A stretch of DNA of 64,000 nucleotides from Escherichia coli (GCF_001677475.2 NZ_CP015229.1); one strand, 5' to 3'; positions 3,945 through 62,132 are shown, counted from the stretch's first letter. The notes: generated from the letters alone by a model not told the origin. Numbers and translations: made by a program.

Positions 3945-6092
3945 TTACGCCAGTGCCGCTTCGCGCAGGCGAGTTTTCAACTTGTTGTACTCGTCAATCA
4001 CGTACTGCTCGGCGGCGCGCTGATCGGCGATCGGCTCGACGCGCACGGCGCAGTATTTGTATTCCGGCGTTTTCGTAATCGGGCTTAAGTTTTCGGTAAC
4101 CAGCTCGTTACAGGCACCAATCCACCACTGGTAGGTCATATAAATCGCCCCTTTGTTCGGACGATCGCTGACCTGCGCACGGGTGATAATTTTGCCTTTA
4201 CGCGAGTGCACCCAAACCAATGCCTCATCTTCAATACCCAGACGTTTGGCGTCTTCGGTATTGATTTGTGCGTAGCCAGGTTCATCAGCCAGCGCCGCCA
4301 GTGCCGCACAGTTACCGGTCATCGAACGGCAAGAGTAGTGACCAACTTCACGCACCGTTGACAGTACCATCGGATACTCGTCGGTGAGTTTGTCGATTGG
4401 CGCTACCCAGTCGCAGGTGAAGAACTGCGCCAGACCGTTCGGGGTATCAAACTTCTCTTTAAACAGATAAGAAGTCCCCTGATCGGCATCTGAAGTATCG
4501 CGGCAAGGCCACTGAATGAAGCCCAGTTCGCCCATTTTCTCGTAAGTCGCACCGTAGAAATCCGGGCACAGATGACGCAACTCATCCCAGATCTCCTGGG
4601 TGTTGTTGTAGTGCATCGGATAACCCATACGGGTGGCGATTTCACTGATGATTTGCCAGTCCGTTTTCAGATCCCATTTCGGTTCAACCGCTTTGAAGAA
4701 ACGCTGGAAGCCACGGTCAGCCGCAGTAAACACGCCTTCATGCTCGCCCCACGACGTTGACGGTAAAATAACATCCGCCGCCGACGCGGTTTTGGTCATA
4801 AAGATGTCCTGAACGATGACCAGTTCCAGATCTTCAAAGGCTTTACGTACTGCCGACAGCTCCGCGTCAGTTTGAAGCGGATCTTCGCCCATAATGTACG
4901 CGGCACGCACTTCACCATGCGCTGCGCGGTGCGGCAGCTCGCTGATGCGATAACCGGTATGAGCAGGCAGGCTTTCCACGCCCCAGGCTTTGGCGAATTT
5001 CTCGCGGTTAGCCGGATCTTTCACGTACTGGTATCCCGGATACGTATCCGGCAGCGCGCCCATATCGCAGGCACCCTGCACGTTGTTCTGACCACGAACC
5101 GGGTTTACACCCGCATGCGGCTTACCGAGGTTACCGGTCAGCATCGCGAGGCTGGTCAGAGAACGCACGGTTTCCACGCCCTGGTAGAACTGGGTTACAC
5201 CCATGCCCCACAGGATGGCGGCGCTTTTCGCCTGGGCATACATCCGTGCCGCCTGACGAATCTCACTGGCGCTGACGCCGGTGATATCTTCAACCGACTC
5301 CGGCGTGTAGCCTTCAACGATTTTACGATACTCTTCAAAGCCTTCTGTACGGGAAGCGACGAAAGCTTTGTCGTACAGGTTTTCTTCAATAATGACATGA
5401 CCCATCGCATTCAACAGCGCGATGTTCGAGCCGTTTTTCAGTGCAATGTGCATGTCAGCAATGCGCGCGGTTTCAATTTTGCGCGGATCGCAGACGATAA
5501 TTTTCGCCCCGTTACGTTTAGCGTTAATTACGTGGTTCGCCACGATTGGGTGGGAATCCGCCGGGTTGTACCCGAAAACGAACACTAAATCGGTATTATC
5601 AATTTCGTTAATAGCATTGCTCATTGCGCCATTACCGACCGATTGGTGCAGACCTGCAACCGATGGGCCGTGTCAGACACGAGCGCAGCAGTCAACGTTA
5701 TTGGTACCAATAACGGCGCGCGCAAATTTTTGCATTACATAGTTGGTTTCGTTACCCGTACCACGCGAGGAGCCGGTCGTCTGGATGGCATCCGGACCGT
5801 ACTTCTCTTTGATGGCGCTCAGGCGCTCGGCAACGTAATTCAGTGCCTCATCCCAGGAAACAGGTTCGAGTTTGCCGCCACGCTGGCGACGGATCATGGG
5901 GGTTTTCAGGCGCGGGGTCAGGATCTGGGTATCGTTAATGAAGTCCCAGCCATAATAACCCTTCAGACACAGGGTACCCTGGTTGGTTTTCCCCTGCGCT
6001 GCCTCCGCCCGGACGATTTTGCCGTTATCGACGACCAGGTTGATTTTGCAACCTGATGCGCAATAGGGGCAAACCGTGACGACTTTTTTCAT
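3945..6092 (-). CDS. fdhF: Formate dehydrogenase H, selenocysteine-containing molybdoenzyme (715 aa); in-frame UGA at 5673-5675 decoded as Sec
   Basis: ORF-track pieces 5673..6092 and 3945..5624 are in the same frame, separated only by TGA; read-through gives ...CCARV-U-HGPSVAGLHQSVGNGAMSNAINEIDNTDLVFVFGYNPADSHP..., the known FdhF sequence around Sec140. Confidence 0.95.
5630..5675 (-). other. Selenocysteine recoding site: UGA plus downstream SECIS hairpin in fdhF mRNA
   Basis: mRNA reads UGA-CACGGCCCAUCGGUUGCAGGUCUGCACCAAUCGGUCGGUAAUGGCG immediately 3' of the UGA, the classic fdhF SelB-binding stem-loop. Confidence 0.85.
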
Positions 6093-13323: not shown

Positions 13324-13575
13324 ATAAATCTCCATTTATCATTTGTGTCGTAAATATGTAATCCATGCAAAATACGTCATTTAAAGCTGGCGATATCATA
13401 ATTGGGAAATTGCGACTTTAATAAGTAGAAGTGTGAGCTGAACGCGCCATTTTATTAGGCATTTGTGCTGAAGAGGGAAAAGTACGCAAATTTATTATCT
13501 CTGTAAATAATATGAGGTGTTTTATATATTTATTATATATATTGTACTTCGGCAAATACTGAGCACAATTAATCA

Positions 13576-13893
13576 ATGCAACCGGTGTTTTTTATTAAAA
13601 AACGTACCGGAGCAATGGGCGGTCATGTCGCTGGCACCGCAGGATTCTGTGTTGCTGTGCCAGCCTTTTATTCATGGTCAATGAGTGAGGGGATTGATAA
13701 AGAAACCAGGTCGTCAGAGCGCACTGATTATCCGCATTACGCCAGTGAAGTTGCACTGGCTTTTGGTTCACGAGTGGTTGGCCTCGAACTGGCAAAAATG
13801 ATTGTGGATGCGTGGCTGGGCGCGCAGTACGAAGGCGGTCGTCATCAACAACGCGTGGAGGCGATTACGGCAATAGAGCAGCGGAGAAATTGA
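13576..13893 (+). pseudogene. rpiB: Decayed remnant of ribose-5-phosphate isomerase B / allose-6-phosphate isomerase (rpiB)
   Basis: C-terminal ...SSERTDYPHYASEVALA-FGSRVVGLELAKMIVDAWLGAQYEGGRHQQRVEAITAIEQRRN matches RpiB, but the central catalytic segment (ICGTGVG region, about 50 residues) is missing and the N-terminus is unrelated. Confidence 0.6.
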
Positions 13894-25742: not shown

Positions 25743-25807
25743 GATGGTGACCTCAGTTAAGAGAAGCCAGTTAAGTGTAGTTCGAAATTTATACAGATGA
25801 GAGGGAA

Positions 25808-25883
25808 GCCTGATAAGACGCGGTCAGCGTCGCATCAGGCTGTCGGCATCGTTGCCGGATGCGGCGCGAGCGCCTTATCCGGC
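25808..25883. repeat. BIME: two inverted REP units between yjdN and yjdM
   Basis: gcctgataagacgcggtcagcgtcgcatcaggc and gccggatgcggcgcgagcgccttatccggc. Confidence 0.8.
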
Positions 25884-25901
25884 TTACCGATCACAATACA
25901 A

Positions 25902-26237: not shown

Positions 26238-26636
26238 GTGGATTTCCTCAAAAGTCAGCAGGGCAAAAGCGCCAAAAAACGGCAGATTGCCGAAAAAGGC
26301 CGCAATTATACACAAAATCCCTGAGTTTGTCGGGGGTACTGCTGATTTTAGACGACGATCGTTTTCATTTGAAAGGAAACGCAAAAAGAAAATAATCTTT
26401 TTGCCTCCATTTATTATTTAAGATAAGGTTAATGCTCTACTTGTTCTTTTTTTAATTCAAATGATATTTTTATCTTTCTGACGTTTTAAACGTATCGGAA
26501 GATGTTATTTATTTTAATAAAAAAACACTCTAAATATAAAATTATTTCTTGCAGTAATTATAAAAGCCGAAAACAGAACTCAAAAACAATCTGGCTAAAT
26601 AAAAGTAACAAAATTTGCTTTAAGGAAGAATTTTCT

Positions 26637-28865
26637 ATGTACACACAGACCCTGTATGAGTTAAGTCAGGAGGCTGAACGGCTGTTACAGCTTTCTCGCC
26701 AACAGTTGCAGTTACTGGAAAAAATGCCTCTCTCTGTACCCGGAGACGATGCGCCACAACTGGCTTTACCCTGGAGTCAGCCTAATATCGCCGAACGTCA
26801 CGCGATGCTGAATAATGAGTTGCGTAAAATTTCCCGACTGGAAATGGTGCTGGCGATTGTCGGTACCATGAAAGCAGGGAAATCAACCACCATTAATGCC
26901 ATTGTTGGTACGGAGGTTCTGCCTAATCGTAATCGCCCAATGACTGCGCTGCCGACGCTTATTCGCCATACGCCCGGGCAAAAGGAACCGGTACTGCATT
27001 TTTCACATGTCGCGCCAATCGATTGTTTAATTCAAAAATTACAACAGCGCCTGCGTGATTGCGATATTAAGCATCTGACCGATGTGCTGGAAATAGATAA
27101 AGATATGCGTGCGCTTATGCAGCGGATCGAAAATGGCGTCGCTTTCGAAAAATATTATCTGGGTGCCCAGCCTATTTTTCATTGTCTGAAAAGTTTGAAT
27201 GATTTGGTGCGACTGGCGAAGGCGCTGGACGTCGATTTTCCTTTTTCTGCTTACGCCGCCATTGAGCATATTCCCGTGATTGAAGTGGAGTTTGTCCATC
27301 TGGCGGGGCTGGAGAGTTATCCCGGTCAGTTGACGTTACTGGATACCCCCGGGCCAAATGAAGCCGGGCAACCGCATCTGCAAAAAATGCTTAACCAGCA
27401 GCTGGCTCGCGCCTCGGCGGTATTGGCGGTGCTGGATTATACGCAACTGAAATCGATCTCCGATGAAGAGGTCCGTGAGGCGATTTTGGCGGTGGGGCAA
27501 TCGGTGCCGCTGTATGTGCTGGTCAATAAGTTCGATCAACAGGATCGTAACAGTGACGACGCCGACCAGGTGCGGGCACTGATTTCCGGGACGCTGATGA
27601 AAGGCTGTATTACGCCACAGCAGATATTTCCGGTGTCGTCGATGTGGGGCTACCTGGCGAATCGGGCGCGCCATGAGTTAGCCAACAACGGTAAGTTACC
27701 ACCGCCAGAGCAACAACGCTGGGTGGAAGATTTTGCCCATGCCGCGCTCGGCAGGCGCTGGCGTCATGCCGATCTGGCTGACCTCGAACATATTCGTCAT
27801 GCTGCCGATCAGTTGTGGGAAGATTCGCTGTTCGCCCAGCCAATTCAGGCGTTGCTTCATGCCGCTTACGCTAACGCCTCGTTGTATGCTCTGCGATCTG
27901 CCGCGCATAAACTGTTGAATTACGCGCAGCAGGCGCGGGAATACCTGGATTTCCGTGCGCACGGGTTAAACGTCGCTTGTGAACAATTGCGGCAAAATAT
28001 TCATCAGATCGAAGAAAGTTTGCAGCTATTGCAACTCAATCAGGCGCAGGTGAGCGGCGAGATTAAACATGAAATCGAGCTGGCCCTGACCTCCGCCAAC
28101 CACTTTCTGCGTCAACAGCAAGATGCGCTGAATGCGCAGTTTGCCGCCTTGTTTCAGGATGATTCGGAGCCGTTAAGCGAGATTCGTACCCGCTGTGAGA
28201 CACTGTTACAGACGGCGCAGAACACCATTAGTCGCGACTTTACGCTGCGTTTTGCCGAGCTGGAATCCACCCTTTGCCGGGTGTTAACCGATGTTATTCG
28301 CCCCATTGAGCAACAAATCAAAATGGAATTGAGCGAGTCAGGGTTTCGTCCTGGGTTTCATTTTCCTGTTTTTCACGGCGCAGTTCCCCACTTCAACACT
28401 CGCCAGCTGTTCAGTGAAGTCATTTCGCGCCAGGAAGCAACGGACGAGCAGAGCACGCGTTTAGGCGTTGTGCGTGAGACTTTTTCGCGCTGGTTGAATC
28501 AGCCCGACTGGGGACGGGGAAATGAGAAATCCCCGACAGAGACGGTTGATTACAGTGTGTTGCAACGAGCATTAAGCGCAGAAGTCGATCTTTATTGCCA
28601 ACAAATGGCTAAAGTTCTGGCAGAGCAGGTCGATGAATCTGTTACGGCAGGCATGAATACTTTTTTCGCTGAGTTCGCTTCATGTTTGACGGAATTACAG
28701 ACGCGTTTACGCGAAAGTCTGGCTCTGCGTGAACAAAATGAATCGGTGGTCAGGCTGATGCAGCAGCAATTGCAGCAGACTGTGATGACTCACGGCTGGA
28801 TTTACACCGACGCCCAGCTGTTACGCGATGATATTCAAACACTTTTCACGGCAGAACGATATTGA
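26637..28865 (+). CDS. crfC: Dynamin-like large GTPase CrfC (YjdA)
   Basis: ATG at 26637 gives MYTQTLYELSQEAERLL...; GTPase G1 motif GTMKAGKST; 742 aa. Confidence 0.88.
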   Translation: MYTQTLYELSQEAERLLQLSRQQLQLLEKMPLSVPGDDAPQLALPWSQPNIAERHAMLNNELRKISRLEMVLAIVGTMKAGKSTTINAIVGTEVLPNRNRPMTALPTLIRHTPGQKEPVLHFSHVAPIDCLIQKLQQRLRDCDIKHLTDVLEIDKDMRALMQRIENGVAFEKYYLGAQPIFHCLKSLNDLVRLAKALDVDFPFSAYAAIEHIPVIEVEFVHLAGLESYPGQLTLLDTPGPNEAGQPHLQKMLNQQLARASAVLAVLDYTQLKSISDEEVREAILAVGQSVPLYVLVNKFDQQDRNSDDADQVRALISGTLMKGCITPQQIFPVSSMWGYLANRARHELANNGKLPPPEQQRWVEDFAHAALGRRWRHADLADLEHIRHAADQLWEDSLFAQPIQALLHAAYANASLYALRSAAHKLLNYAQQAREYLDFRAHGLNVACEQLRQNIHQIEESLQLLQLNQAQVSGEIKHEIELALTSANHFLRQQQDALNAQFAALFQDDSEPLSEIRTRCETLLQTAQNTISRDFTLRFAELESTLCRVLTDVIRPIEQQIKMELSESGFRPGFHFPVFHGAVPHFNTRQLFSEVISRQEATDEQSTRLGVVRETFSRWLNQPDWGRGNEKSPTETVDYSVLQRALSAEVDLYCQQMAKVLAEQVDESVTAGMNTFFAEFASCLTELQTRLRESLALREQNESVVRLMQQQLQQTVMTHGWIYTDAQLLRDDIQTLFTAERY

Positions 28866-31547: not shown

Positions 31548-31559
31548 AACAATTGAACT

Positions 31560-31576
31560 CTTAAGGTTCACTTAAT
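31560..31576 (+). promoter_or_regulatory. PmrA (BasR) box upstream of pmrR
   Basis: CTTAAG-gttca-CTTAAT, an exact YTTAAK-N5-YTTAAK direct repeat 45-60 bp upstream of the pmrR ATG. Confidence 0.65.
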
Positions 31577-31620
31577 CTCTGACGCGCATACTCTCCTCCA
31601 GGTTAACGGAGGAGAGTGCA

Positions 31621-31710
31621 ATGAAAAACCGTGTTTATGAAAGTTTAACTACCGTGTTCAGCGTGCTGGTGGTCAGCAGCTTTCTTTATATCTGGTTTGC
31701 CACGTTCTGA
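31621..31710 (+). CDS. pmrR: Small membrane protein PmrR (29 aa); below the ORF-track cutoff
   Basis: atg aaa aac cgt ... ttc tga translates to MKNRVYESLTTVFSVLVVSSFLYIWFATF, a single TM helix; GGAGG Shine-Dalgarno; 3' end overlaps the convergent basS by 25 bp. Confidence 0.75.
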   Translation: MKNRVYESLTTVFSVLVVSSFLYIWFATF

Positions 31711-32786
31711 TCTTTCTTCAGCCGTACCCAGGCCCGCGTGCCGGAAGTCTCTTGCCGGTTCTGCAGGAAAAACTGCCCGTGATGCAACTGTGTAATGCGG
31801 CTGACAATACTTAACCCCAGACCAATCCCGCCATAACGGCTGTCCATACGTACAAACGCTTTACTCAACTCCCCGCATTTACTCTCATCAATACCCGGTC
31901 CTTCATCTTCAACGGCCATTACCGCTCCGCCATCTTCTTGCAGCTTAATCATAATGTTGCTGCCTTGCGGGCTGTAACGATGGGCGTTTTCTACCAGGTT
32001 TCGCAATAACATCCGCAGCAGGGTTGCGTCACCCTGAACGGTGATGTCGGCGGCGCTCTCTGGCAATAGCAGGGTTTGCTGGCGCTGGTCGAGCATGGTA
32101 CTGAGTTCGTCATACGAGGGGAGAATGACCTCTTCCAGCAGTTTTACATGTTGATAATTACCGGAAGAAAATGACTGTCCGGCGCGCGCCAGTTGTAACA
32201 GCTGGGAGACGCTCTCCATCATCTGATCAAGCCGTGCCACTAACGGTGCTACATCAATGTGATGCGTTTTCGCCAGCAGTTCCAGATGCAAACGCACCCC
32301 CGCCAGTGGCGTTCGCAGTTCGTGCGCGACGTCAGCGGTAAACAACCTTTCGTTATCCAGCGTGTTGGTCAGGCGACTGACCAGATCGTTTAACGCCGAA
32401 ACCACCGCTTCGATTTCGAGGGTGGCGCTGTGAATGGCAATGGGCGTTAAGTTGTCGGCGGTGCGCGCTTCCAGCTCTTTTTGCAGCTCCGCCAGCGGGC
32501 GGGTGATGCGATGCACCGCCTGATAGCAGATAAATAGCGTCAGGCTGACCATAAAGACGCCGGGGACAATCAGGCTGGCGACCGCCTCGCGGATCTCGCG
32601 CATAATGTGGCGATCGTTGTTGCGATTGTCGCGTAGCGCCTGCTCAAACAGCTGAATCTGCTCGGTACTTTCATGCCATAGCCAGAAGACGCTGATCAAC
32701 TCAAACACCAACAAAATGGCCCCGATGGTCAATATCAGCCGTTGGCGCAGCGATATTGGTCGGCGCAGAAAACGCATCAAATTCAA
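31686..32786 (-). CDS. basS: Two-component sensor histidine kinase BasS (PmrB)
   Basis: 366-aa ORF with two TM segments, HAMP, H-box (ADVAHELRTPL) and ATPase domain; exact start codon uncertain. Confidence 0.88.
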   Translation of the reverse strand: MNLMRFLRRPISLRQRLILTIGAILLVFELISVFWLWHESTEQIQLFEQALRDNRNNDRHIMREIREAVASLIVPGVFMVSLTLFICYQAVHRITRPLAELQKELEARTADNLTPIAIHSATLEIEAVVSALNDLVSRLTNTLDNERLFTADVAHELRTPLAGVRLHLELLAKTHHIDVAPLVARLDQMMESVSQLLQLARAGQSFSSGNYQHVKLLEEVILPSYDELSTMLDQRQQTLLLPESAADITVQGDATLLRMLLRNLVENAHRYSPQGSNIMIKLQEDGGAVMAVEDEGPGIDESKCGELSKAFVRMDSRYGGIGLGLSIVSRITQLHHGQFFLQNRQETSGTRAWVRLKKDQNVANQI

Positions 32787-37758: not shown

Positions 37759-40026
37759 TTACGCTTTCACACACATAACGTGGTAAATACCGTCAATAAT
37801 TTCAGTCCCTTCAGTTTCGTGTTCAAATCCAGGGAAATGATGATCCCAGGATTGCAGCGAGCGTAAATAACTTACTTGCGGACTGTTTTTATCGCCGAAG
37901 TTTTCACCAGACAGCAGCATCGGGATTCCTGGCGGATACGGGATAACTGAGTTTGCCGCAATGCGTCCTGGCAGATTTTCAATGGATACCAGTTCGACAT
38001 TGTTGTCGACAATTGCGTTGTACGCTTCTCGCGGGGTGATTTCCGCCACCGGCAGGCCGGAATAGGCTTCGTTCAACCGTGCGCCAGGGTTGTTTTCTTT
38101 CAGCCAGGCAAACATGGTGTCACCCAGATCGTGAATCCCCATGTTCGCGTAAGTGTCAGGATATTGTTCAACAAGTTCCGGCATCACCTGCGCCAGCGGT
38201 GTGTTGGCGTCATAGTGGCGTTTGAAGGAGCAAAGGGTGTTAACCAGAGTCCCCCATTTCCCACGGGTTACGCCCATAGAGAACAGGAACATAATTTGGA
38301 AGTCAGTGGTGCGGGTAGGCACAATGCCGTGGCGACCAAGCCAGGCAGTGACCAGCGCCGCCGGAACACCGGTTTCTTCCAGTTCACCATCTTCACCCAT
38401 TCCCGGAGCAAGGATGCTGACTTTAATTGGGTCGAGCATACTCCAGTTATCCGGAATATCTTTGAAGCCGTGCCAGCTTTCGCCCGGATGCATTACCCAG
38501 CAGTCCTGAACGGTGGTCAGCAGTTTGGTTGGTGCGTCAGCAAAGTCATAGGTTTTGCCGGTTTGTGGGTCGGTGACGACTTCTTTGTTCCACGGTTTGA
38601 AGAACCAGCTACCGTCAGCGGTGAACTCTTTATACAGCCGCGCCATCGCCTGACGGAAATCAACCGCTTCGTCGATCACTTCCTGCGTCAGTGACAGGCC
38701 GCTGTTGCCGTCCATCATCGACACCGCCACGTCGTTGGATGCGCAGATGGCATACAGCGGGGAGGTGGTGGCATGCATCATGTAGGCCTGGTTGAAGCGG
38801 GAGAAGTTAATCGCCCCACGACCTTCACGTACATGAATATAAGAAGCCTGTGAAAGCGCATTCAGCAGTTTGTGGGTGGAATGGGTGGCGAAAACAGTAG
38901 GACCGTTGTGATCGCCAGGTTCGCCGCGCATGGCATAGTGATCGGCATAGATCGGGTTGAAACGTGCATAGCCGTACCAGGCTTCGTCAAAGTGCAGACG
39001 ATCGGAGGTTTTTTCCAGCAGATCCTGCGCTTCTTTAGCGTTATAACACACGCCGTCATAGGTGCAGTTGGTCACCACGCAGTAAGACGGTTTTTGCCCG
39101 GCTTTGTCTTTGGTCAGCGGGCTTTCACTGATTTTCTTCTGCAAGGTTTCAGGTTGCATTTCTTGCGGATAGATTGGCCCGATAATGCCGTAGCGGTTGC
39201 GGCTTGGCACCATGTAGACCGGTTTCGCGCCTGTCAGCATCAAGCCTTGTTCGATGGATTTATGGCAGTTACGGTCAACGACCACGACATCGTTATCGGT
39301 CATGCAAGCCTGCATGATGGTGCGGTTAGAGCCGGAAGTACCGACGACTACCGACCAGGAGCGATCGGCACCAAATACGCGTGCGGCATATTTTTCGCTT
39401 TCGCCAAATGCGCCAGTATGGTCAAGCAAAGAACCGAGGGAAGTTCGTTCGATGCCCATGTCGGTGCGGAACAGGTTTTCACCATAGTAGTCATGGTAGA
39501 AACGTCCGGCGGGTGTTTTGGTAAAACCAACGCCACCCTGGTGGCCTGGCGCTGCCCAGGAATATTCATGGATGTCGCTATATTTCATCAGCGCGCTGAA
39601 CAGTGGCGGCAACAGTTGCTGGCGGTAGCGGGTCATCGCGGCAACGGCGCGTCCGGCGATAAAGTCGGCGGTATCTTCCAGAATCCAGGCGAATTCATCG
39701 ACAAGCTCCAGCAGATCCCGGTCCATTGCGGCGAGGGCTTTTTCCCGATCGCCCAACAGGAAGACCGGCACGTTTTGTTGGCGCTCATGAAGCTTACCGA
39801 TCAATTGTCTGACGTTTTGATGTTCGTCCGGATGTTCCATTTGATAGCTGAACATCAGGCAGTCAATGGCTTCGTTTGAAGAGAGAATGGCAAAACCATC
39901 ATCAAAGGAGGTGGATTTAATCACGGTAACATTTTGCTGGCTTAAAGCATCTGCCAGACGCTCAACGGCGTTACCGACCCAGGTGTCTTGATGGAGAAAC
40001 TCGCTTTCAACAATTAATACTTTCAT
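37759..40026 (-). CDS. adiA: Biodegradative (acid-inducible) arginine decarboxylase
   Basis: 755 aa from the ATG at 40026 (MKVLIVESEFLHQDTW...); PLP-lysine motif FATHSTHKLL. Confidence 0.93.
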   Translation of the reverse strand: MKVLIVESEFLHQDTWVGNAVERLADALSQQNVTVIKSTSFDDGFAILSSNEAIDCLMFSYQMEHPDEHQNVRQLIGKLHERQQNVPVFLLGDREKALAAMDRDLLELVDEFAWILEDTADFIAGRAVAAMTRYRQQLLPPLFSALMKYSDIHEYSWAAPGHQGGVGFTKTPAGRFYHDYYGENLFRTDMGIERTSLGSLLDHTGAFGESEKYAARVFGADRSWSVVVGTSGSNRTIMQACMTDNDVVVVDRNCHKSIEQGLMLTGAKPVYMVPSRNRYGIIGPIYPQEMQPETLQKKISESPLTKDKAGQKPSYCVVTNCTYDGVCYNAKEAQDLLEKTSDRLHFDEAWYGYARFNPIYADHYAMRGEPGDHNGPTVFATHSTHKLLNALSQASYIHVREGRGAINFSRFNQAYMMHATTSPLYAICASNDVAVSMMDGNSGLSLTQEVIDEAVDFRQAMARLYKEFTADGSWFFKPWNKEVVTDPQTGKTYDFADAPTKLLTTVQDCWVMHPGESWHGFKDIPDNWSMLDPIKVSILAPGMGEDGELEETGVPAALVTAWLGRHGIVPTRTTDFQIMFLFSMGVTRGKWGTLVNTLCSFKRHYDANTPLAQVMPELVEQYPDTYANMGIHDLGDTMFAWLKENNPGARLNEAYSGLPVAEITPREAYNAIVDNNVELVSIENLPGRIAANSVIPYPPGIPMLLSGENFGDKNSPQVSYLRSLQSWDHHFPGFEHETEGTEIIDGIYHVMCVKA

Positions 40027-40224
40027 CATTGCTTACCCGGTTATGAAGGAATCTTCGTTGCGGGCAAGTATCTTCCGGCCTTTTCGGGCTGTAAAGCGCG
40101 TGAAAAATAAACATTTTTGAAATATTTGTTTTTATAAACAATATGTTATGTGATTATTTTAAATTATTTTCACTGCTTATTATCGACGGCTAAACTATTT
40201 TTTTGGCTGATACTGATATCGTCT

Positions 40225-55974: not shown

Positions 55975-58122
55975 TTATTTTTTGCTTTCTTCTTTCAATA
56001 CTTTAACGGTATAGCGGCCATCAGCCTGACGGTATGCACCGTGAATATCGGTTTCAAAGCCCGGATAGTGAGCGCCGATTTCACACAGCATCTGCAGGAA
56101 CTCCAGAACCGGACGGCTTTCTTCGGTGATCATTTCTCCCGGCATTACCAGAGGAACTCCCGGCGGATACGGAAGGATCATATTGGCGTTAATACGACCG
56201 ACCATTTCGTCGAGGTAAACTTCTTCGGTCATACCGTGCAGCTCTTTCTGGAACGCAGCATACGGAGTCATTACCATCGTCGGCAGCACTTCAAATGCGC
56301 GATACATCAGATCCGGCAGATTGTGGTGAACAATCAGTTTGTGGATATTCTGAGCCAGTTCCTGAATACGCATGTTTTCATAGAATTCAGGATCTTCACG
56401 ATACAGAGACGGCAGCATGTTTTTCACACGCAGGTTCAGGTCGAACGCACGTTTGAAGTCAGTCAGAGCACGCAGCAGGCTCAGTGCTTTGGTCTTATCG
56501 ATACCGATGCTGAACAGGAACAGCAGGTTATACGGACCGGTTTTCTCAACAACGATGCCATGTTCGTCGAGGTATTTCGCCACGATGCTGGCCGGAATAC
56601 CAAAGTCGCTCATGGTGCCGTCTTTTTCCATCCCCGGAGTCAGCAGGGTGACTTTGATCGGGTCAAGATACATGTGCTCGTTATCGATGTTTTTGAAGCC
56701 GTGCCAGGTGCTGTCAGAACGCAGCGGCCAGCATTCAGTCGTATCGATATGATCCGGCTGCCAAACATCAAAGAACCAGCCATCAGATTCCGTTCTCAGA
56801 CGTTTGATCTCTTTACGGAATTTGATCGCACGTTCAATGGAACCGTTGATCAGACGCTTACCAGCATTACCTTTCATCATCGCCGCTGCGGTTTCAGTGG
56901 ACGCCACGATACCGTAGTGCGGAGAAGTGGTGGTGTGCATCATGTAGGCTTCGTTAAAGGTTTCTTCGTTTACGTCACCTTTAACGTGGATCATGGAAGC
57001 CTGAGAGAACGCCGCCAGCAGTTTGTGAGTAGACTGGGTTTCGTAAATCACTTTCCCTTCTACACGGCCACCGCTCATACCGCATTTACCTTCGTAAATC
57101 GGTGAGAAGTTGGTGTAAGGCACCCACGCGGAGTCAAAGTGGATGGATTTCACATCCAGTGTTTTCTTGATGAAGTCGGTGTTGTACAGCAGACCATCAT
57201 AGGTAGAGTTGGTAATTACAGCATGTACCGGCCAGGTTGCGTTTGGTGTTTCTTTCACGCGCTTAGCAATGGTAGCGTGCTGGAATTCACTCTGTGGGAT
57301 ACCACCAAGAATACCGTAAGCGTTACGGGTCGGGCGGAAATAGATTGGCGTAACATCGCTCATCATCATCAGGTGGGTCAGCGATTTGTGGCAGTTACGG
57401 TCAATCAGAATGGTGCTGCCTGCCGGAGCAGAGTACATACCAACAATTTTGTTCGCAGTGGAAGTACCGTTGGTCACCATGTAGCTGCGGTCTGCGTTAA
57501 AGACGCGAGCGATATACTGTTCTGCTTCTTTGTGTGGACCACTGTGATCCAGCAGAGAACCCAGTTCAGATACTGAAATGGAAATATCAGATTTCATGGT
57601 GTTCGGACCAAAGAAATCATAGAACAGGCTACCTACCGGGCTTTTCTGGAATGCAGTACCGCCCATGTGACCAGGAGTACAGAAAGTATATTTACCTTCA
57701 CGAACATATTTAAACAGTGCTTTGGTCAGCGGAGGCAGAATAGTGTTGATATATTCGTCAGTGGTCTGCTTGATCTTGTTAGCAATATCTTCAGCAGCAC
57801 CCAGCGCATATTCAAAGAAGCTAATCTGTAAACGCAGGTCATTCAGGCTTACATCGAGAGTGGAATACGTATTAGCGAACGCGTACAACGGCAGGTTCTC
57901 GTTCATTTTGCTAATTTCTTCGCACAGCTCGAGATTATATTTATCCCAGTCAAAAATAACGCCGCACAGACGCGCATTGTTTTCGATCAGTTTTAATAAG
58001 TCGTCACGGTCGTTCGGGTAAACAATCTGGAAGTTCAGACGTTCAAGCGCGCGATGAAGTTCACGGATGGGTTCTTCTTTAAAATAAACCCCCATGTGAT
58101 TCAATATTGCAATAACGTTCAT
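55975..58122 (-). CDS. cadA: Inducible lysine decarboxylase
   Basis: 715 aa from the ATG at 58122 (MNVIAILNHMGVYFKEEPIRELH...); PLP-lysine motif YETQSTHKLL; ORF-track start at 58161 is an extension. Confidence 0.95.
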   Translation of the reverse strand: MNVIAILNHMGVYFKEEPIRELHRALERLNFQIVYPNDRDDLLKLIENNARLCGVIFDWDKYNLELCEEISKMNENLPLYAFANTYSTLDVSLNDLRLQISFFEYALGAAEDIANKIKQTTDEYINTILPPLTKALFKYVREGKYTFCTPGHMGGTAFQKSPVGSLFYDFFGPNTMKSDISISVSELGSLLDHSGPHKEAEQYIARVFNADRSYMVTNGTSTANKIVGMYSAPAGSTILIDRNCHKSLTHLMMMSDVTPIYFRPTRNAYGILGGIPQSEFQHATIAKRVKETPNATWPVHAVITNSTYDGLLYNTDFIKKTLDVKSIHFDSAWVPYTNFSPIYEGKCGMSGGRVEGKVIYETQSTHKLLAAFSQASMIHVKGDVNEETFNEAYMMHTTTSPHYGIVASTETAAAMMKGNAGKRLINGSIERAIKFRKEIKRLRTESDGWFFDVWQPDHIDTTECWPLRSDSTWHGFKNIDNEHMYLDPIKVTLLTPGMEKDGTMSDFGIPASIVAKYLDEHGIVVEKTGPYNLLFLFSIGIDKTKALSLLRALTDFKRAFDLNLRVKNMLPSLYREDPEFYENMRIQELAQNIHKLIVHHNLPDLMYRAFEVLPTMVMTPYAAFQKELHGMTEEVYLDEMVGRINANMILPYPPGVPLVMPGEMITEESRPVLEFLQMLCEIGAHYPGFETDIHGAYRQADGRYTVKVLKEESKK

Positions 58123-58201: not shown

Positions 58202-59536
58202 TTAATGTGCGTTAGACGCTGTGTGGTTATCCATTGAGTGACTCTGGCGCTCGTGCATTTTGCGAGCGTAGAACATCAGGATAATCAGGCTGACGATGAA
58301 GGTACCTGCCAGCTCGAAGGAGCTTGCGCCCATTAGCGCGATGAAGCAGAACACGCAACCCAGTACAGAGCAGATCAGGCTGACAAAGTTGCGGATGTTA
58401 ACGCCTTCAAAACGAATCAGGTCAACGCAAGAGTAGAAGTACGGCAGCATAGTCAGCAGTACTGCGATACCGGTCAGTTCACCGAACAGGTCAGATGCTT
58501 TACCACCGGCAGAGTTCATCAGAGTGATGAGGATCATCAGGGCAGTCATTTTCACTGCAGCCAGCAGCAGACCTTTTTTCGGAATACCGTTGCTGTCGAC
58601 TTCACCATAAACTTTCGGGAAGTTACCGTCGTTAGCGGCACGTACACCTGCCTGGCCTACCAACATCATCCAGGAGCCCAGAGAAGTCAGGCACGCAAAG
58701 GCGGTGAATGCAGAAACCAGCGGCGCAGCCCAGTTACCGAGGATAGTTGAAGCACTGATTGCAAACGGAGCACCGGAAGCCGCCATTACAGAAGACGGAT
58801 ACATACCGGAAAGCACCTGAGTCGCAGCGATGTAAACAATACCTGCTAAACCAGTACCCAGCATGGTTGCCAGCGGAACGGTACGTTTCGGGTTTTTAAC
58901 CATACCAGTACTTACAGCTGCGGATTCAACACCCACGAAGGCCCACAGGCAGAGCAGAATACTTTTAATGATCGCATGACCATCGGTGGTATCCGCAGTA
59001 TTCCAGTTAGCAGCATAAGTCGCAGCATCAAACCAATGCCAGCCAACAATAGCTGTCATAACCACAGGAATAAGAACCAGCACCAGACCAATAGTGGTTA
59101 AACGGCTTACCCAGGTACCGCCGAGCATATTTACAAAGGTAAATACCCAGACGATAGCAATACAGGCGATACCCGCCGGAACAGGATCATTTAATACTGG
59201 GAAGAAGGTGGAAAGATAAGATACAGCGGTAATACCAATCGCCAGGTTACCAATCCAGTTAGCATGGTAATAAAGAACACCTGTCTGAAAACCAAATGCA
59301 GGAGAAATTTCTCCGGCATAAGCAATTGGGCCACCTTGTTGCGGGTTTTTTGTTGCCAGTCGGGCATATACATACGCCAGCGACATTGCACCAATAATAG
59401 AGATAATCCAACCCCAGATAGCAATACCACCGATACTTGCTAGGTTCGCAGGTAATAATGCAATACCGCTCCCCATCATATTACCGGCAACAACACCGGT
59501 ACAGGCAAATAGCCCGATCTTCTTGGCAGAACTCAT
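58202..59536 (-). CDS. cadB: Lysine:cadaverine antiporter (APC family)
   Basis: 444-aa ORF MSSAKKIGLFACTGVVAGNMMGSGIALLPANLA... Confidence 0.95.
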   Translation of the reverse strand: MSSAKKIGLFACTGVVAGNMMGSGIALLPANLASIGGIAIWGWIISIIGAMSLAYVYARLATKNPQQGGPIAYAGEISPAFGFQTGVLYYHANWIGNLAIGITAVSYLSTFFPVLNDPVPAGIACIAIVWVFTFVNMLGGTWVSRLTTIGLVLVLIPVVMTAIVGWHWFDAATYAANWNTADTTDGHAIIKSILLCLWAFVGVESAAVSTGMVKNPKRTVPLATMLGTGLAGIVYIAATQVLSGMYPSSVMAASGAPFAISASTILGNWAAPLVSAFTAFACLTSLGSWMMLVGQAGVRAANDGNFPKVYGEVDSNGIPKKGLLLAAVKMTALMILITLMNSAGGKASDLFGELTGIAVLLTMLPYFYSCVDLIRFEGVNIRNFVSLICSVLGCVFCFIALMGASSFELAGTFIVSLIILMFYARKMHERQSHSMDNHTASNAH

Positions 59537-59901
59537 GCTCTTCTCCTAATTTCATTTTTGAATTTGGAGTCCGGGTCATGATGTATAACTATTTCCTGAC
59601 CAGACCAAACTGGCGCTAAGATTACTCACGAAAAAAGGATTAATCCTAAAGATTAGGTGAAATAACACAAAAGTTTCTGTAAGTGAGAACTTGAGGTTTT
59701 TTATTAACACATCAGGATCGCAAGTTGATATCATGAAAAGATAAACATTCAATGTTTACAATAGATTGCGTGACGTCTTCTGGTTAAATTTATGTAATAA
59801 AAATTATGCGGCAAATAAATTGCCGCAACATATTATACCAATAAAAACATACAAAAACTCAACAACAAATATTCCCGGGCATGAATCAACCCGGGATTTG
59901 C
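59537..59901 (-). promoter_or_regulatory. Pcad promoter/operator region
   Basis: 365-bp AT-rich spacer between the cadC stop and cadB start; known to hold the CadC binding sites and H-NS-bound DNA. Site boundaries not resolved. Confidence 0.55.
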
Positions 59902-61440
59902 TTATTCTGAAGCGAGAAATTTGTCGAGATAAGGTACAACATAAGGAACAGAAGTCTGGAATATACCATTTTCAATCCAGTAAAGGGTGTTTGCCCCTGG
60001 GCGTAAATTAAAGGCGGTGAGATATGCATCAGCTGCTTCCCGGTTCATCCCCTTCATTTCATAAACCTTGCCAAGCAACACATAATTTAGCCAGGACATT
60101 TCAAGATCAATGCCAGTATTTATCGCCTGGTAAGACTCATCTGTTTTACCTTTTACCAGAGCACTGACCGCTTTTATTTGATATATAATGGACAGGTTAT
60201 TCAATTCCGGTAGTGTAACAATGTTATTTATTTCTGTGTTCAGTGCTGCTAATTGTTTTTCATCCAAAGGATGTTGAGAATGGCGCACGATATCAACTAA
60301 TGCTTTTTCTGCTCTCGCGTAGGTAAATTCTGGGGATGATTGAACAATCTCACCTAATAATTCACTGGCACGATTCAATGATTTATCATCGCCATGCAGT
60401 AAATAATCATGTGCCTGATAAAAATTAGTTAATAACGCACCACGATGAGGCAAAATTTGCTGGAGCATCTCCTGCATTCGTTGTGGCCACGGTTGGTTTA
60501 ACGCTTTTGATAAACTCTCCAGTAAATCATTTTGAATCGCCAGCTGATTACCGTTAGTGATGACATAACGTTTATCCAGCATGGTTGAACCATCTGCATT
60601 GTCTACCAATTTTACCGACATAAAGCATTGTTGAGCACGGTATTGGCGCTGATTAACAAACGCAATAGATAATGTTTTACCGGAACTGCTCGGTTCATCA
60701 ATGTTGTAGTTGATTTTGTCATGCACCATAAAGGTGGAGAAGGTGTTAAGTGATGTCGCCACCAAATCACCCACACCTATCGCGTAAGAGAGCTGATATG
60801 GGGAACTCCAGCTGTTACAACTCTTATTCACCATATTAATGTCAATATCGCGTGGATTGAGCAAAATACGCGATTTGCTCATCGGAAGACGTGTATCAAG
60901 ACTTGAAAACGCTACCAGTGCTACACAGATACCTAACGACAACAGGAAAAAAAACCATACCCAAAAGGTAGTGAATCGTTTGCTTTTAACTGGGGATTGT
61001 TCAGGTGGCGTTGCGGTGTTTTGAATGTTAAGACTGTGGGAGGGAGAATCTGTGGCAGGAACCGCCTCTGGTATAGGGGGAGGCGAAGATAGCATTATTT
61101 CCTCTCCCTCTTCTTCGCTGTACCAGATAACCGGCACCATTAATTTATAGCCGCGCTTTGGTACAGTAGCGATATAGACAGGACTATCTTCATCATTATC
61201 TTTTAATGACTTACGTAGTTCTGAGATACTCTGCGTCACAACGTGATTGGTGACAATACTTCTCTTCCAGACATTATCGATAAGTTCATCCCTGCTAAGT
61301 ACTTCGCCACTGTGTTGAGCAAAGAAAACCAGAAGATCGATTAATCTCGGCTCAAGGGTAAGTTGACGCCCATTGCGGCTAATTTGGTTTATGGACGGAG
61401 TAACAAGCCATTCGCCAACGCGAACTACAGGTTGTTGCAT
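59902..61440 (-). CDS. cadC: Membrane-integrated ToxR-like transcriptional activator CadC
   Basis: 512-aa ORF MQQPVVRVGEWLVTPSINQISRNGRQLTLEPRLIDLL...; winged-helix N-terminus, one TM helix, periplasmic sensor. Confidence 0.95.
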   Translation of the reverse strand: MQQPVVRVGEWLVTPSINQISRNGRQLTLEPRLIDLLVFFAQHSGEVLSRDELIDNVWKRSIVTNHVVTQSISELRKSLKDNDEDSPVYIATVPKRGYKLMVPVIWYSEEEGEEIMLSSPPPIPEAVPATDSPSHSLNIQNTATPPEQSPVKSKRFTTFWVWFFFLLSLGICVALVAFSSLDTRLPMSKSRILLNPRDIDINMVNKSCNSWSSPYQLSYAIGVGDLVATSLNTFSTFMVHDKINYNIDEPSSSGKTLSIAFVNQRQYRAQQCFMSVKLVDNADGSTMLDKRYVITNGNQLAIQNDLLESLSKALNQPWPQRMQEMLQQILPHRGALLTNFYQAHDYLLHGDDKSLNRASELLGEIVQSSPEFTYARAEKALVDIVRHSQHPLDEKQLAALNTEINNIVTLPELNNLSIIYQIKAVSALVKGKTDESYQAINTGIDLEMSWLNYVLLGKVYEMKGMNREAADAYLTAFNLRPGANTLYWIENGIFQTSVPYVVPYLDKFLASE

Positions 61441-62020
61441 AATAGAAACTCATTCGAAAAGGGAATGATGCAATGATAATTGCCACAACCTATTTTTACC
61501 ATCTATAGATGGGTTTATTTACATATTATTGGTGAATGCAAGACGTTATTTTTACCAGCGATAAACTTCTTGATTACATAGTATTACGAAAGGATTTTAC
61601 TGAGAACCAGAAGTAATATTCCTTACCATCAAAATTCATCATCTTTGCCAAAGAAAAATGTTCAGAAAATAATCCATGGAAAATTGTCCGGAGCGCTTAC
61701 TATTTTAATGGATTGTTAGTCTTTGCATGAGCAAGCGGACTGATAAATTTCTCTTTGTTCTCATTCAGAAAATCTCATCAGTCGCCGTTCAGACCGGTGT
61801 TGTGCTTTATGGATGCGTTACGCTCCTGATGACGTCATTTGACGTTCAACAGCATCACGGGGCCGCACGACATTTCACGTCAGTCAGTGCTATCGCTCAG
61901 GAACACATTTCCCCGAATTGGGATCTACCCGCAAAATGCTGGTGATGTGGGGAGAATCTGGTTGAGTTCGGTAGAATTGATTTGTAGGCAGAACGCTTAA
62001 ATCGTGGCGTCCTGAAACGA

Positions 62021-62048
62021 AAAACGGACCTCCGTGGAGGTCCGTTTA
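62021..62048 (-). terminator. Rho-independent terminator of pheU
   Basis: cggacctcc-gtgg-aggtccg hairpin directly 3' of the tRNA, followed by a T-run on the minus strand. Confidence 0.8.
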
Positions 62049-62056
62049 TATGAATT

Positions 62057-62132
62057 TGGTGCCCGGACTCGGAATCGAACCAAGGACACGGGGATTTTCA
62101 ATCCCCTGCTCTACCGACTGAGCTATCCGGGC
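62057..62132 (-). tRNA. pheU: tRNA-Phe (anticodon GAA)
   Basis: Reverse complement GCCCGGATAGCTCAGTCGGTAGAGCAGGGGATTGAAAATCCCCGTGTCCTTGGTTCGATTCCGAGTCCGGGCACCA: 76 nt, anticodon loop ATTGAAAAT, TPsiC GGTTCGATTCC, encoded CCA. Confidence 0.97.

Follow-up and report, generated by a model that had tools for sequence, protein, structure and literature searches.

The gene for the Escherichia coli pH sensor CadC carries three successive proline codons in the linker that joins the DNA-binding domain to the membrane helix. The question is whether they set the amount of CadC by slowing the ribosome that translates it, or whether they belong to a spacer, a slippery site, a cis-acting arrest or an antisense gene. 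The locus was analysed in a stretch of 64,000 nucleotides from E. coli (GCF_001677475.2, NZ_CP015229.1), referred to as the window. In this stretch an earlier note had located a PPPIP motif in CadC and had proposed that the copy number of the protein, and with it the induction of cadBA, is coupled to the activity of elongation factor P (EF-P). The motif is very probably the translational brake, dependent on EF-P, that is already known from E. coli CadC.

The reading frame and its neighbourhood

The open reading frame at 59902..61440 is E. coli CadC, as identified by Pfam, NCBIfam, solved structures, cadBA synteny and 99% identity to the K-12 protein. The features of the gene and of its target operon are as follows.

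59902..61440, minus strand: cadC coding sequence, 512 amino acids, a membrane-integrated ToxR-like pH sensor and cadBA activator (ORF, Pfam, NCBIfam NF007540)
61141..61371, minus strand: winged-helix DNA-binding domain, residues 24-100 (Pfam PF00486 Trans_reg_C, E 6.4e-19)
60967..61119, minus strand: cytoplasmic linker, residues 108-158, with both proline runs inside (gap between PDB matches; 9 prolines in 51 residues)
60904..60966, minus strand: single predicted transmembrane helix, approximately residues 159-179 (Kyte-Doolittle hydropathy)
60469..60870, minus strand: periplasmic sensor domain CadC_C1, residues 191-324 (Pfam PF18500, E 6.2e-63)
58202..59536, minus strand: cadB, lysine:cadaverine antiporter, part of the CadC target operon
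55975..58122, minus strand: cadA, lysine decarboxylase (true start MNVIAIL), part of the CadC target operon
56158..56166, minus strand: PPG motif in CadA, P653-P654-G655, the second reported EF-P-sensitive site of the cad module

The CadC equivalog model NF007540 matches with 755.9 bits (cutoff 400), and an identical CadC protein sequence is present in E. coli records. The solved DNA-binding domain of CadC (PDB 5JU7) matches residues 2-107 with an E value of 2.6e-65, and the solved periplasmic domain (PDB 3LY7) matches residues 188-512 with an E value of 3.4e-214. Linker residues 108-158 lie outside both of these, the solved structures matched, and the linker has been termed unstructured (PMC5936718). 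Kyte-Doolittle windows of 19 residues rise above 1.6 only at starts 155-165, with means of up to 2.46, and the helix that this hydropathy profile predicts is situated 37 codons downstream of the stall. The N-terminal winged helix, the single predicted transmembrane helix, the periplasmic domain, the equivalog score and the cadBA neighbourhood that mark the CadC class are all found here. On one flank, cadC lies directly upstream of cadB and cadA, in the order cadC-cadB-cadA-dtpC as in K-12; the other flank carries tRNA-Phe, dicD and dsbD, also as in E. coli K-12. The PPG of cadA is located upstream of a Rho-dependent terminator, and its effect was seen in an efp deletion strain (PMC5021804). 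A CadC-like paralogue with 84% identity (P0008) stands in a non-cad context without PPP, and it was set aside as irrelevant to the motif.

Position, frame and codons of the motif

Within the linker, the following elements are distinguished.

61069..61083, minus strand: PPPIP, residues 120-124, the unit changed to AAAIS in published work (PMC5936718)
61075..61083, minus strand: triproline P120-P121-P122, CCT CCC CCT, where the ribosome stalls (codons shared with the MG1655 motif of PMC8129111)
61084..61086, minus strand: Ser119 codon TCG, the -1 context of PPP (the TCG serine named in PMC8129111)
61003..61008, minus strand: P145-P146 (TPPE), the second polyproline run of the linker (two CadC polyproline motifs per PMC5811046 and PMC5936718)

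The minus strand of 61069..61083 reads CCT CCC CCT ATA CCA and encodes PPPIP at residues 120-124 of the 512-residue frame, so that the coordinates, codons and residue numbers given in the earlier note are exact. The frame is also the true one: the Trans_reg_C and CadC_C1 domains share it, one on either side of the motif, and the two remaining minus-strand frames at this point either hit a stop close by or contain no run of prolines. Codons 117-126 are CTA TCT TCG CCT CCC CCT ATA CCA GAG GCG in both the window and MG1655, with two serines, S118-S119 (TCT TCG), preceding PPPIP. Codons 120-122 thereby form an EF-P-type motif of at least three successive proline codons in a translated frame, and CCT CCC CCT consists of the slow or rare proline codons (CCU/CCC), with CCG avoided. 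Only two of the approximately 51 long open reading frames in the window contain PPP, namely cadC and an rdcA homologue.

Identity with K-12 MG1655

The window aligns collinearly with MG1655 4292715..4364494, at 95-99% identity and with the als operon missing, and the strain is not K-12. This collinearity holds as far as the window end. The window does not reach efp, epmA or epmB; the K-12 chromosome carries efp and epmB about 14 kb, and epmA about 21 kb, past the cadC-side end.

The motif is that of K-12 CadC, in the same gene, at the same residues 120-124, with the same codons (TCG CCT CCC CCT ATA CCA) and in the same context. Codons 1-185 of cadC and the 119 nt upstream of its start agree with MG1655 at every base, so the published K-12 experiments transfer directly. 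The two genes differ at 15 nucleotides, all at or after codon 186. Eleven of these changes are silent, and the other four give the substitutions I276V, T325M, K328Q and D405N, all in the periplasmic domain. EF-P dependence, copy numbers and regulation probably hold in this strain too, as this identity suggests.

Published evidence for an EF-P-dependent stall

Ude et al. 2013 (Science 339:82) already described the CadC triproline stall, one of the best-documented cases of its kind. In PMC5936718, Ude et al. 2013 are cited for the finding that the linker proline runs stall ribosomes, with relief by EF-P only, and that this stall limits CadC to 3-5 molecules per cell. The literature on the identical sequence thus bears out the proposal that PPP stalls ribosomes unless EF-P acts. 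Another count gives 1-3 CadC molecules per cell (PMC6320335). The CadC-PPPIP/AAAIS variant no longer depends on EF-P, and its copy number increases from 3-5 to 11-14 per cell, which upsets the CadC:LysP balance and leads to aberrant PcadBA activation (PMC5936718). These changes support the proposed tie of both CadC level and cadBA induction to EF-P. The CadABC response is affected by efp and efpL deletions (PMC11611912), and a low number of CadC copies results in heterogeneous Cad activation together with an effect on the Adi system (PMC8989999).

The experiments suggested in the earlier note are already published for this exact sequence, and their results agree with it. The coupling to EF-P stands with one addition and one restriction: a fixed brake gives a low copy number even in the presence of EF-P, and dynamic physiological modulation of CadC by EF-P goes beyond the published data.

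The strength of the pause depends on its surroundings. XPPP reporters have been built in the CadC N-terminal context, and SPPP, placed in the NlpD context, proved to be one of the weaker XPPP sequences in vitro (PMC4176338). Since serine at -1 is such a weak in vitro context, the CadC pause is likely to be moderate rather than absolute.

Codon recoding and the question of slippage

The motif is described by Krafczyk et al. 2021 (PMC8129111) as CCU(P120)-CCC(P121)-CCU(P122) after a TCG serine, and the triproline is assigned the role of setting the CadC:LysP balance. Silent recoding to 3xCCG increases PcadBA activity threefold and deregulates the response, and recoding to 3xCCA, 3xCCC or 3xCCU causes little change from wild type (PMC8129111). 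The same work counts mRNA structure, along with slippage of the ribosome at CCC/U-CCN, among the co-contributors.

Loss of CadC mainly by +1 frameshifting on CCU-CCC-C, instead of pausing, would yield a truncated product without the membrane helix. The +1 frame past codon 121 is open for 47 codons until a stop, and the predicted product has 168 residues (121 in frame and 47 out of frame). Slippage further lowers the output of 3xCCC and 3xCCU (PMC8129111), and CCC-CCU pairs in CadC have been discussed in relation to frameshifting (PMC12856214). However, 3xCCA, which is not equally slippery, differs only subtly from wild type, and the fact that only 3xCCG raised output fits tRNA supply and decoding speed (PMC8129111). 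Stalling, in turn, explains the EF-P dependence and its loss in AAAIS (PMC5936718), and a truncated CadC product is not reported in the literature found. Frameshifting as the main route of loss is accordingly very improbable.

At the level of the mRNA, a 7-bp hairpin (UCGCCUC/GAGGCGG) brackets the proline codons. The 131-nt fold around the motif has a z of -2.09, with 9 of 200 shuffles folding as well, and mRNA structure was rejected as the cause of low CadC output because this is too weak. The +1 slippage and the weak local hairpin are possible minor contributors to the EF-P-dependent brake.

Absence of a cis-acting arrest

SecM, TnaC and MifM also encode a programmed ribosome pause within an open reading frame, and in this they resemble CadC. 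These arrest peptides respond to a signal and, through mRNA structure or Rho, regulate in cis a gene located downstream. The CadC pause differs in having no known signal input and in acting in trans, via protein abundance.

It is extremely unlikely that the stall is a regulatory arrest of this kind, controlling a downstream gene on the same mRNA. The presence of a programmed pause in a regulator gene upstream of its target operon fits such an arrangement, but terminator-like hairpins (59896..59873 and 59827..59807) follow directly past the cadC stop codon, and cadBA has its own CadC-dependent promoter, PcadBA. The published effects, moreover, act in trans via CadC copy number, having been obtained with plasmid-borne cadC and a separate PcadBA reporter (PMC8129111). 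With hairpins after cadC and effects in trans, control of a downstream gene is not found, and a cis-regulatory arrest was rejected.

Linker composition and the spacer alternative

Sequence statistics alone give no evidence for selection on PPP. The composition of the whole protein predicts 0.08 PPP windows, and PPP appears in 17% of residue shuffles of the 51-residue linker with its 9 prolines. Across 84 distinct homologue linkers, the observed count is 19 for PPP (15.3 expected) and 59 for PP (64.1 expected). A statistical excess of polyproline was rejected, as linker shuffles show no enrichment of PPP or PP over composition. Since the statistics do not exceed chance, the significance of the motif rests on the published experiments with the identical sequence.

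These figures are also what would be seen if the prolines were a by-product of a proline-rich disordered spacer, mattering, if at all, for the stiffness or length of the linker and not for translation. CadC homologue linkers contain 17% proline on average, their PPP and PP counts are close to composition, the positions of the proline runs are not conserved between genera, and the linker is without a solved structure. The recoding results weigh against this explanation: 3xCCG leaves the protein the same, yet PcadBA activity rises threefold (PMC8129111), and the AAAIS variant is functional but EF-P-independent and more abundant (PMC5936718). A spacer without consequence for translation is therefore very unlikely, and a translational brake remains the preferred explanation.

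The antisense gene laoB

The motif is read on the opposite strand as well.

61025..61150, plus strand: laoB, a 41-residue antisense overlapping ORF in cadC (NCBIfam LaoB_over_CadC)

The model NF038068 (LaoB_over_CadC) matches with 103.1 bits (cutoff 45), the ORF of 41 codons is intact, and the encoded protein is identical to the PGAP-annotated WP_165759932.1. Reverse-complementing the proline codons of cadC gives the LaoB glycine codons GGG GGA GGC (61076..61084), with third positions coinciding. For EHEC Sakai, transcription, ribosome footprints and an arginine-specific knock-out phenotype of laoB have been reported (Hücker et al. 2018, PMC5810103), and a sigma-32 promoter has been proposed (PMC5810103). 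A consensus scan found no sigma-70-like site near the expected laoB start site (~60736). The laoB/ECs5115 pair of that study corresponds to the window, with the same 41-residue LaoB ORF antisense in cadC; proline or glycine is never mentioned there (PMC5810103), and the GGG/PPP overlap is pointed out here. No literature linking laoB with polyproline or EF-P was found, a result that, at incomplete coverage, amounts to absence of evidence only.

According to the codon map, LaoB is unchanged by 3xCCG, 3xCCA and 3xCCT. In 3xCCC and in the natural codon-122 variant, one LaoB isoleucine becomes methionine, and the change of PPPIP to AAAIS converts LaoB SGIGGGE into S(D/L)IAAAE.

The two reading frames are separable in nature. 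In the E. coli-labelled lineage SCPM-O-B-8794, PPPIP is kept and a stop is found at laoB codon 5; in E. albertii, the laoB ORF is kept and PPP is absent (PTS). A strict co-dependence or co-origin of PPP and laoB was rejected, as each occurs without the other. In most genera the antisense frame lacks a start codon and is nevertheless open, which indicates that its openness is largely compositional.

It could be argued that the sequence is held mainly by the antisense gene, as Gly-Gly-Gly, and that proline mutants act partly via LaoB or its transcript. The overlap, the alteration of LaoB that AAAIS would bring, the reported transcription, footprints and arginine phenotype, and the existence of a curated NCBI model all speak for this. 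The separation of PPP and laoB in SCPM-O-B-8794 and E. albertii, the largely compositional openness of the frame and, above all, the altered Cad output of 3xCCG with unchanged LaoB speak against it and leave it with very little probability. Because the silent mutants with unaltered LaoB still show their effect, this effect is attributable to cadC translation, and the 3xCCG result argues that the Cad phenotype stems from cadC translation and not from LaoB.

A separate, very unlikely idea is that the amount of full-length CadC is modulated by laoB being transcribed or translated across the stall site in response to arginine. Cad activation reportedly excludes that of the Adi system, and vice versa, and responds to CadC copy number (PMC8989999). 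If true, such modulation would directly link arginine status (the Adi system) to the Cad system. The bases shared by PPP and laoB have in any case to be taken into account when chromosomal PPP mutants are designed and interpreted.

Distribution of the triproline

Of 5,426 complete E. coli genomes, 5,233 contain a 33-nt stretch centred on the motif. The whole motif is present in an exact 28-nt word in 5,071 of these 5,233. Another 151 carry CCC in place of CCT at codon 122, the only common variant and silent in CadC, and five carry I123M (ATA -> ATG). The three codons remain proline in at least 5,227 of the 5,233 genomes, with at most 6 carrying some other variant. The site is lacking in 193 of the 5,426 genomes; in two examples, cadC is interrupted by IS1, near codons 126 and 198.

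Beyond E. coli the range is narrow. Among 117 CadC homologues, PPP at this alignment column is found only in E. coli-like sequences and in P0091, an unclassified Enterobacteriaceae CadC with PPPRP at the site; the positions of PP and PPP elsewhere in homologue linkers vary. A species-labelled scan finds PPPIP in E. coli, Escherichia sp. E1V33, Escherichia sp. MOD1-EC7003 and E. whittamii, and also in two more divergent lineages (CadC identity 90-92%). PPP is absent from this site in all 34 other species examined. The corresponding residues are PTSIP (CCA ACC TCT) in E. albertii and PPALP in E. fergusonii, where another PPP occurs further along the linker. The Escherichia lineages with PPP use the codons CCT or CCC only, never CCG.

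Judged from this distribution, the PPP brake would have arisen recently, in E. coli and its nearest clades, and is not general to CadC among the species sampled. Because PPP is absent at this site beyond these clades, the brake does not appear to be essential to Cad systems generally. Its confinement makes E. albertii, with PTS, a natural control.

Proposed mechanism and relation to known systems

In the stalled ribosome, peptidyl-Pro-Pro-tRNA occupies the P site and Pro-tRNA the A site. EF-P, beta-lysylated by EpmA and EpmB, acts on this state. Peptide bonds between the consecutive prolines 120-122 would be intrinsically slow to form, causing ribosomes to pause on the cadC mRNA, and EF-P would ease this pause only in part. 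According to the published K-12 work, the remaining pause, which the poorly translated and slippery CCU-CCC-CCU strengthens relative to CCG, caps CadC at a few molecules per cell. At this low number CadC balances its inhibitor LysP (lysine permease), such that induction of cadBA requires both low pH and lysine, and induction also varies from cell to cell. Too little CadC is made in the absence of EF-P. Removal of the prolines, or their encoding by fast CCG codons, conversely produces excess CadC, with lysine dependence lost.

CadC shares the relief of its stall by EF-P with other EF-P-dependent XPPX/PPP proteins, including NlpD (TPPP), EnvZ and CadA (PPG). In these proteins, stall strength is likewise tuned by upstream context and codon choice (PMC4176338, PMC5021804, PMC6023141). 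Unlike most PPP proteins, for which no regulatory purpose of a residual pause is known, CadC has a demonstrated one, the control of copy number. Polyproline translation by eIF5A in eukaryotes and archaea poses the same chemical problem and employs a homologous rescue factor (PMC8129111 ref 15; bioRxiv 10.1101/2023.09.18.558224). The factor itself is different, with hypusine in place of beta-lysine, and is not specific to the cadC locus.

To this known case, the present analysis adds a population count, with near-invariant proline codons, the narrow species range of the triproline, and the dual coding of PPP and laoB. The motif is of biological importance: it was on CadC, as later papers cite Ude et al. 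2013, that the function of EF-P at polyproline stretches was first understood. In conclusion, the motif explains how a membrane sensor is held at few copies per cell, and from this low number follow the lysine dependence and the cell-to-cell heterogeneity of acid resistance.

Proline motifs within the window

Besides cadC, the only long ORF in the window to carry a triproline lies on the plus strand. A shorter proline motif, YPPG, is common to CadA and AdiA (37759..40029, minus strand).

26502..28865, plus strand: triproline ORF (KLPPPEQ, ORF residues 400-402), corresponding by position to K-12 rdcA (yjdA)
56158..56166, minus strand: YPPG motif in CadA (P653-P654-G655), within cadA

A PPG in cadA is reported to precede a Rho-dependent terminator and to show an effect when efp is deleted (PMC5021804).

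Antisense and RNA features around the cadC proline codons

Opposite the stretch of cadC encoding PPPIP runs an ORF that matches laoB, a published overlapping gene, exactly. In the cadC mRNA, a short hairpin encloses the proline codons.

61025..61150, plus strand: laoB ORF, 41 aa, antisense to cadC
61062..61086, minus strand: 7-bp RNA hairpin (UCGCCUC ... GAGGCGG)

The reverse complement of the CadC PPP codons forms the laoB Gly-Gly-Gly codons at 61076..61084. PGAP annotates laoB only where IS1 breaks cadC. The 131-nt fold around the proline codons reaches a z of only -2.09. Rfam matches in the window comprise three elements:

5626..5680, minus strand: SECIS element of fdhF
25807..25884, minus strand: naRNA4 (REP-derived) element
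31552..31717, plus strand: sRNA STnc630

Disruption, probable loss and natural variants of cadC

In E. coli CD09 and FELIX_MS724, cadC is broken by IS1, with insertions at about codon 126, just past the prolines, and at about codon 198. The cadC motif region has zero matches in 193 of the 5,426 complete genomes of E. coli, which points to recurrent loss of cadC in this species. In a CadC variant of 507 aa (P0004), VLTFKTPQRHLNNPQLKANDSLPFG follows approximately residue 130 and equals the +1-frame reading of cadC; the source is a frameshift that is later compensated, or else an error in the assembly.

The motif itself varies among homologues. A CadC-like paralogue of 524 aa with 84% identity (P0008; E. 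coli CP028768.1) reads SLPSVP where CadC reads SPPPIP, its laoB frame is broken, and its neighbourhood is non-cad, consisting of SdiA-regulated and BOF-domain genes and an autotransporter. CadC of E. albertii carries PTSIP (CCA ACC TCT), with a single PP in the linker, and that of E. fergusonii carries PPALP, with a further PPP downstream; both are natural variants of the EF-P-dependent brake and could serve as controls.

Chromosomal setting and comparison with K-12

Upstream of cadC, the interval preceding tRNA-Phe is where related E. coli genomes have a frameshifted integrase fragment annotated beside pheU. This fragment, the yjdQ pseudogene in K-12, is the remnant of an integration event at a tRNA-Phe hotspot.

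61441..62056: cadC-to-tRNA-Phe interval (tRNA-Phe at 62057..62132)
13547..13756: replacement of als/rpiB relative to MG1655, about 200 bp

The window lacks the als operon and rpiB, which span about 6.8 kb in MG1655 (4306822..4313662). Outside this gap it follows the MG1655 gene order, collinear throughout, with 95-99% identity. In K-12, lysU lies just past dtpC, downstream of cadA. None of the three genes efp, epmB and epmA falls in the window; their K-12 positions (4374629..4383620) lie past its end. In K-12, a distance of about 14 kb separates cadC from efp and epmB, and one of about 21 kb separates it from epmA, so the EF-P system has its best-known client as a near-neighbour on the chromosome.
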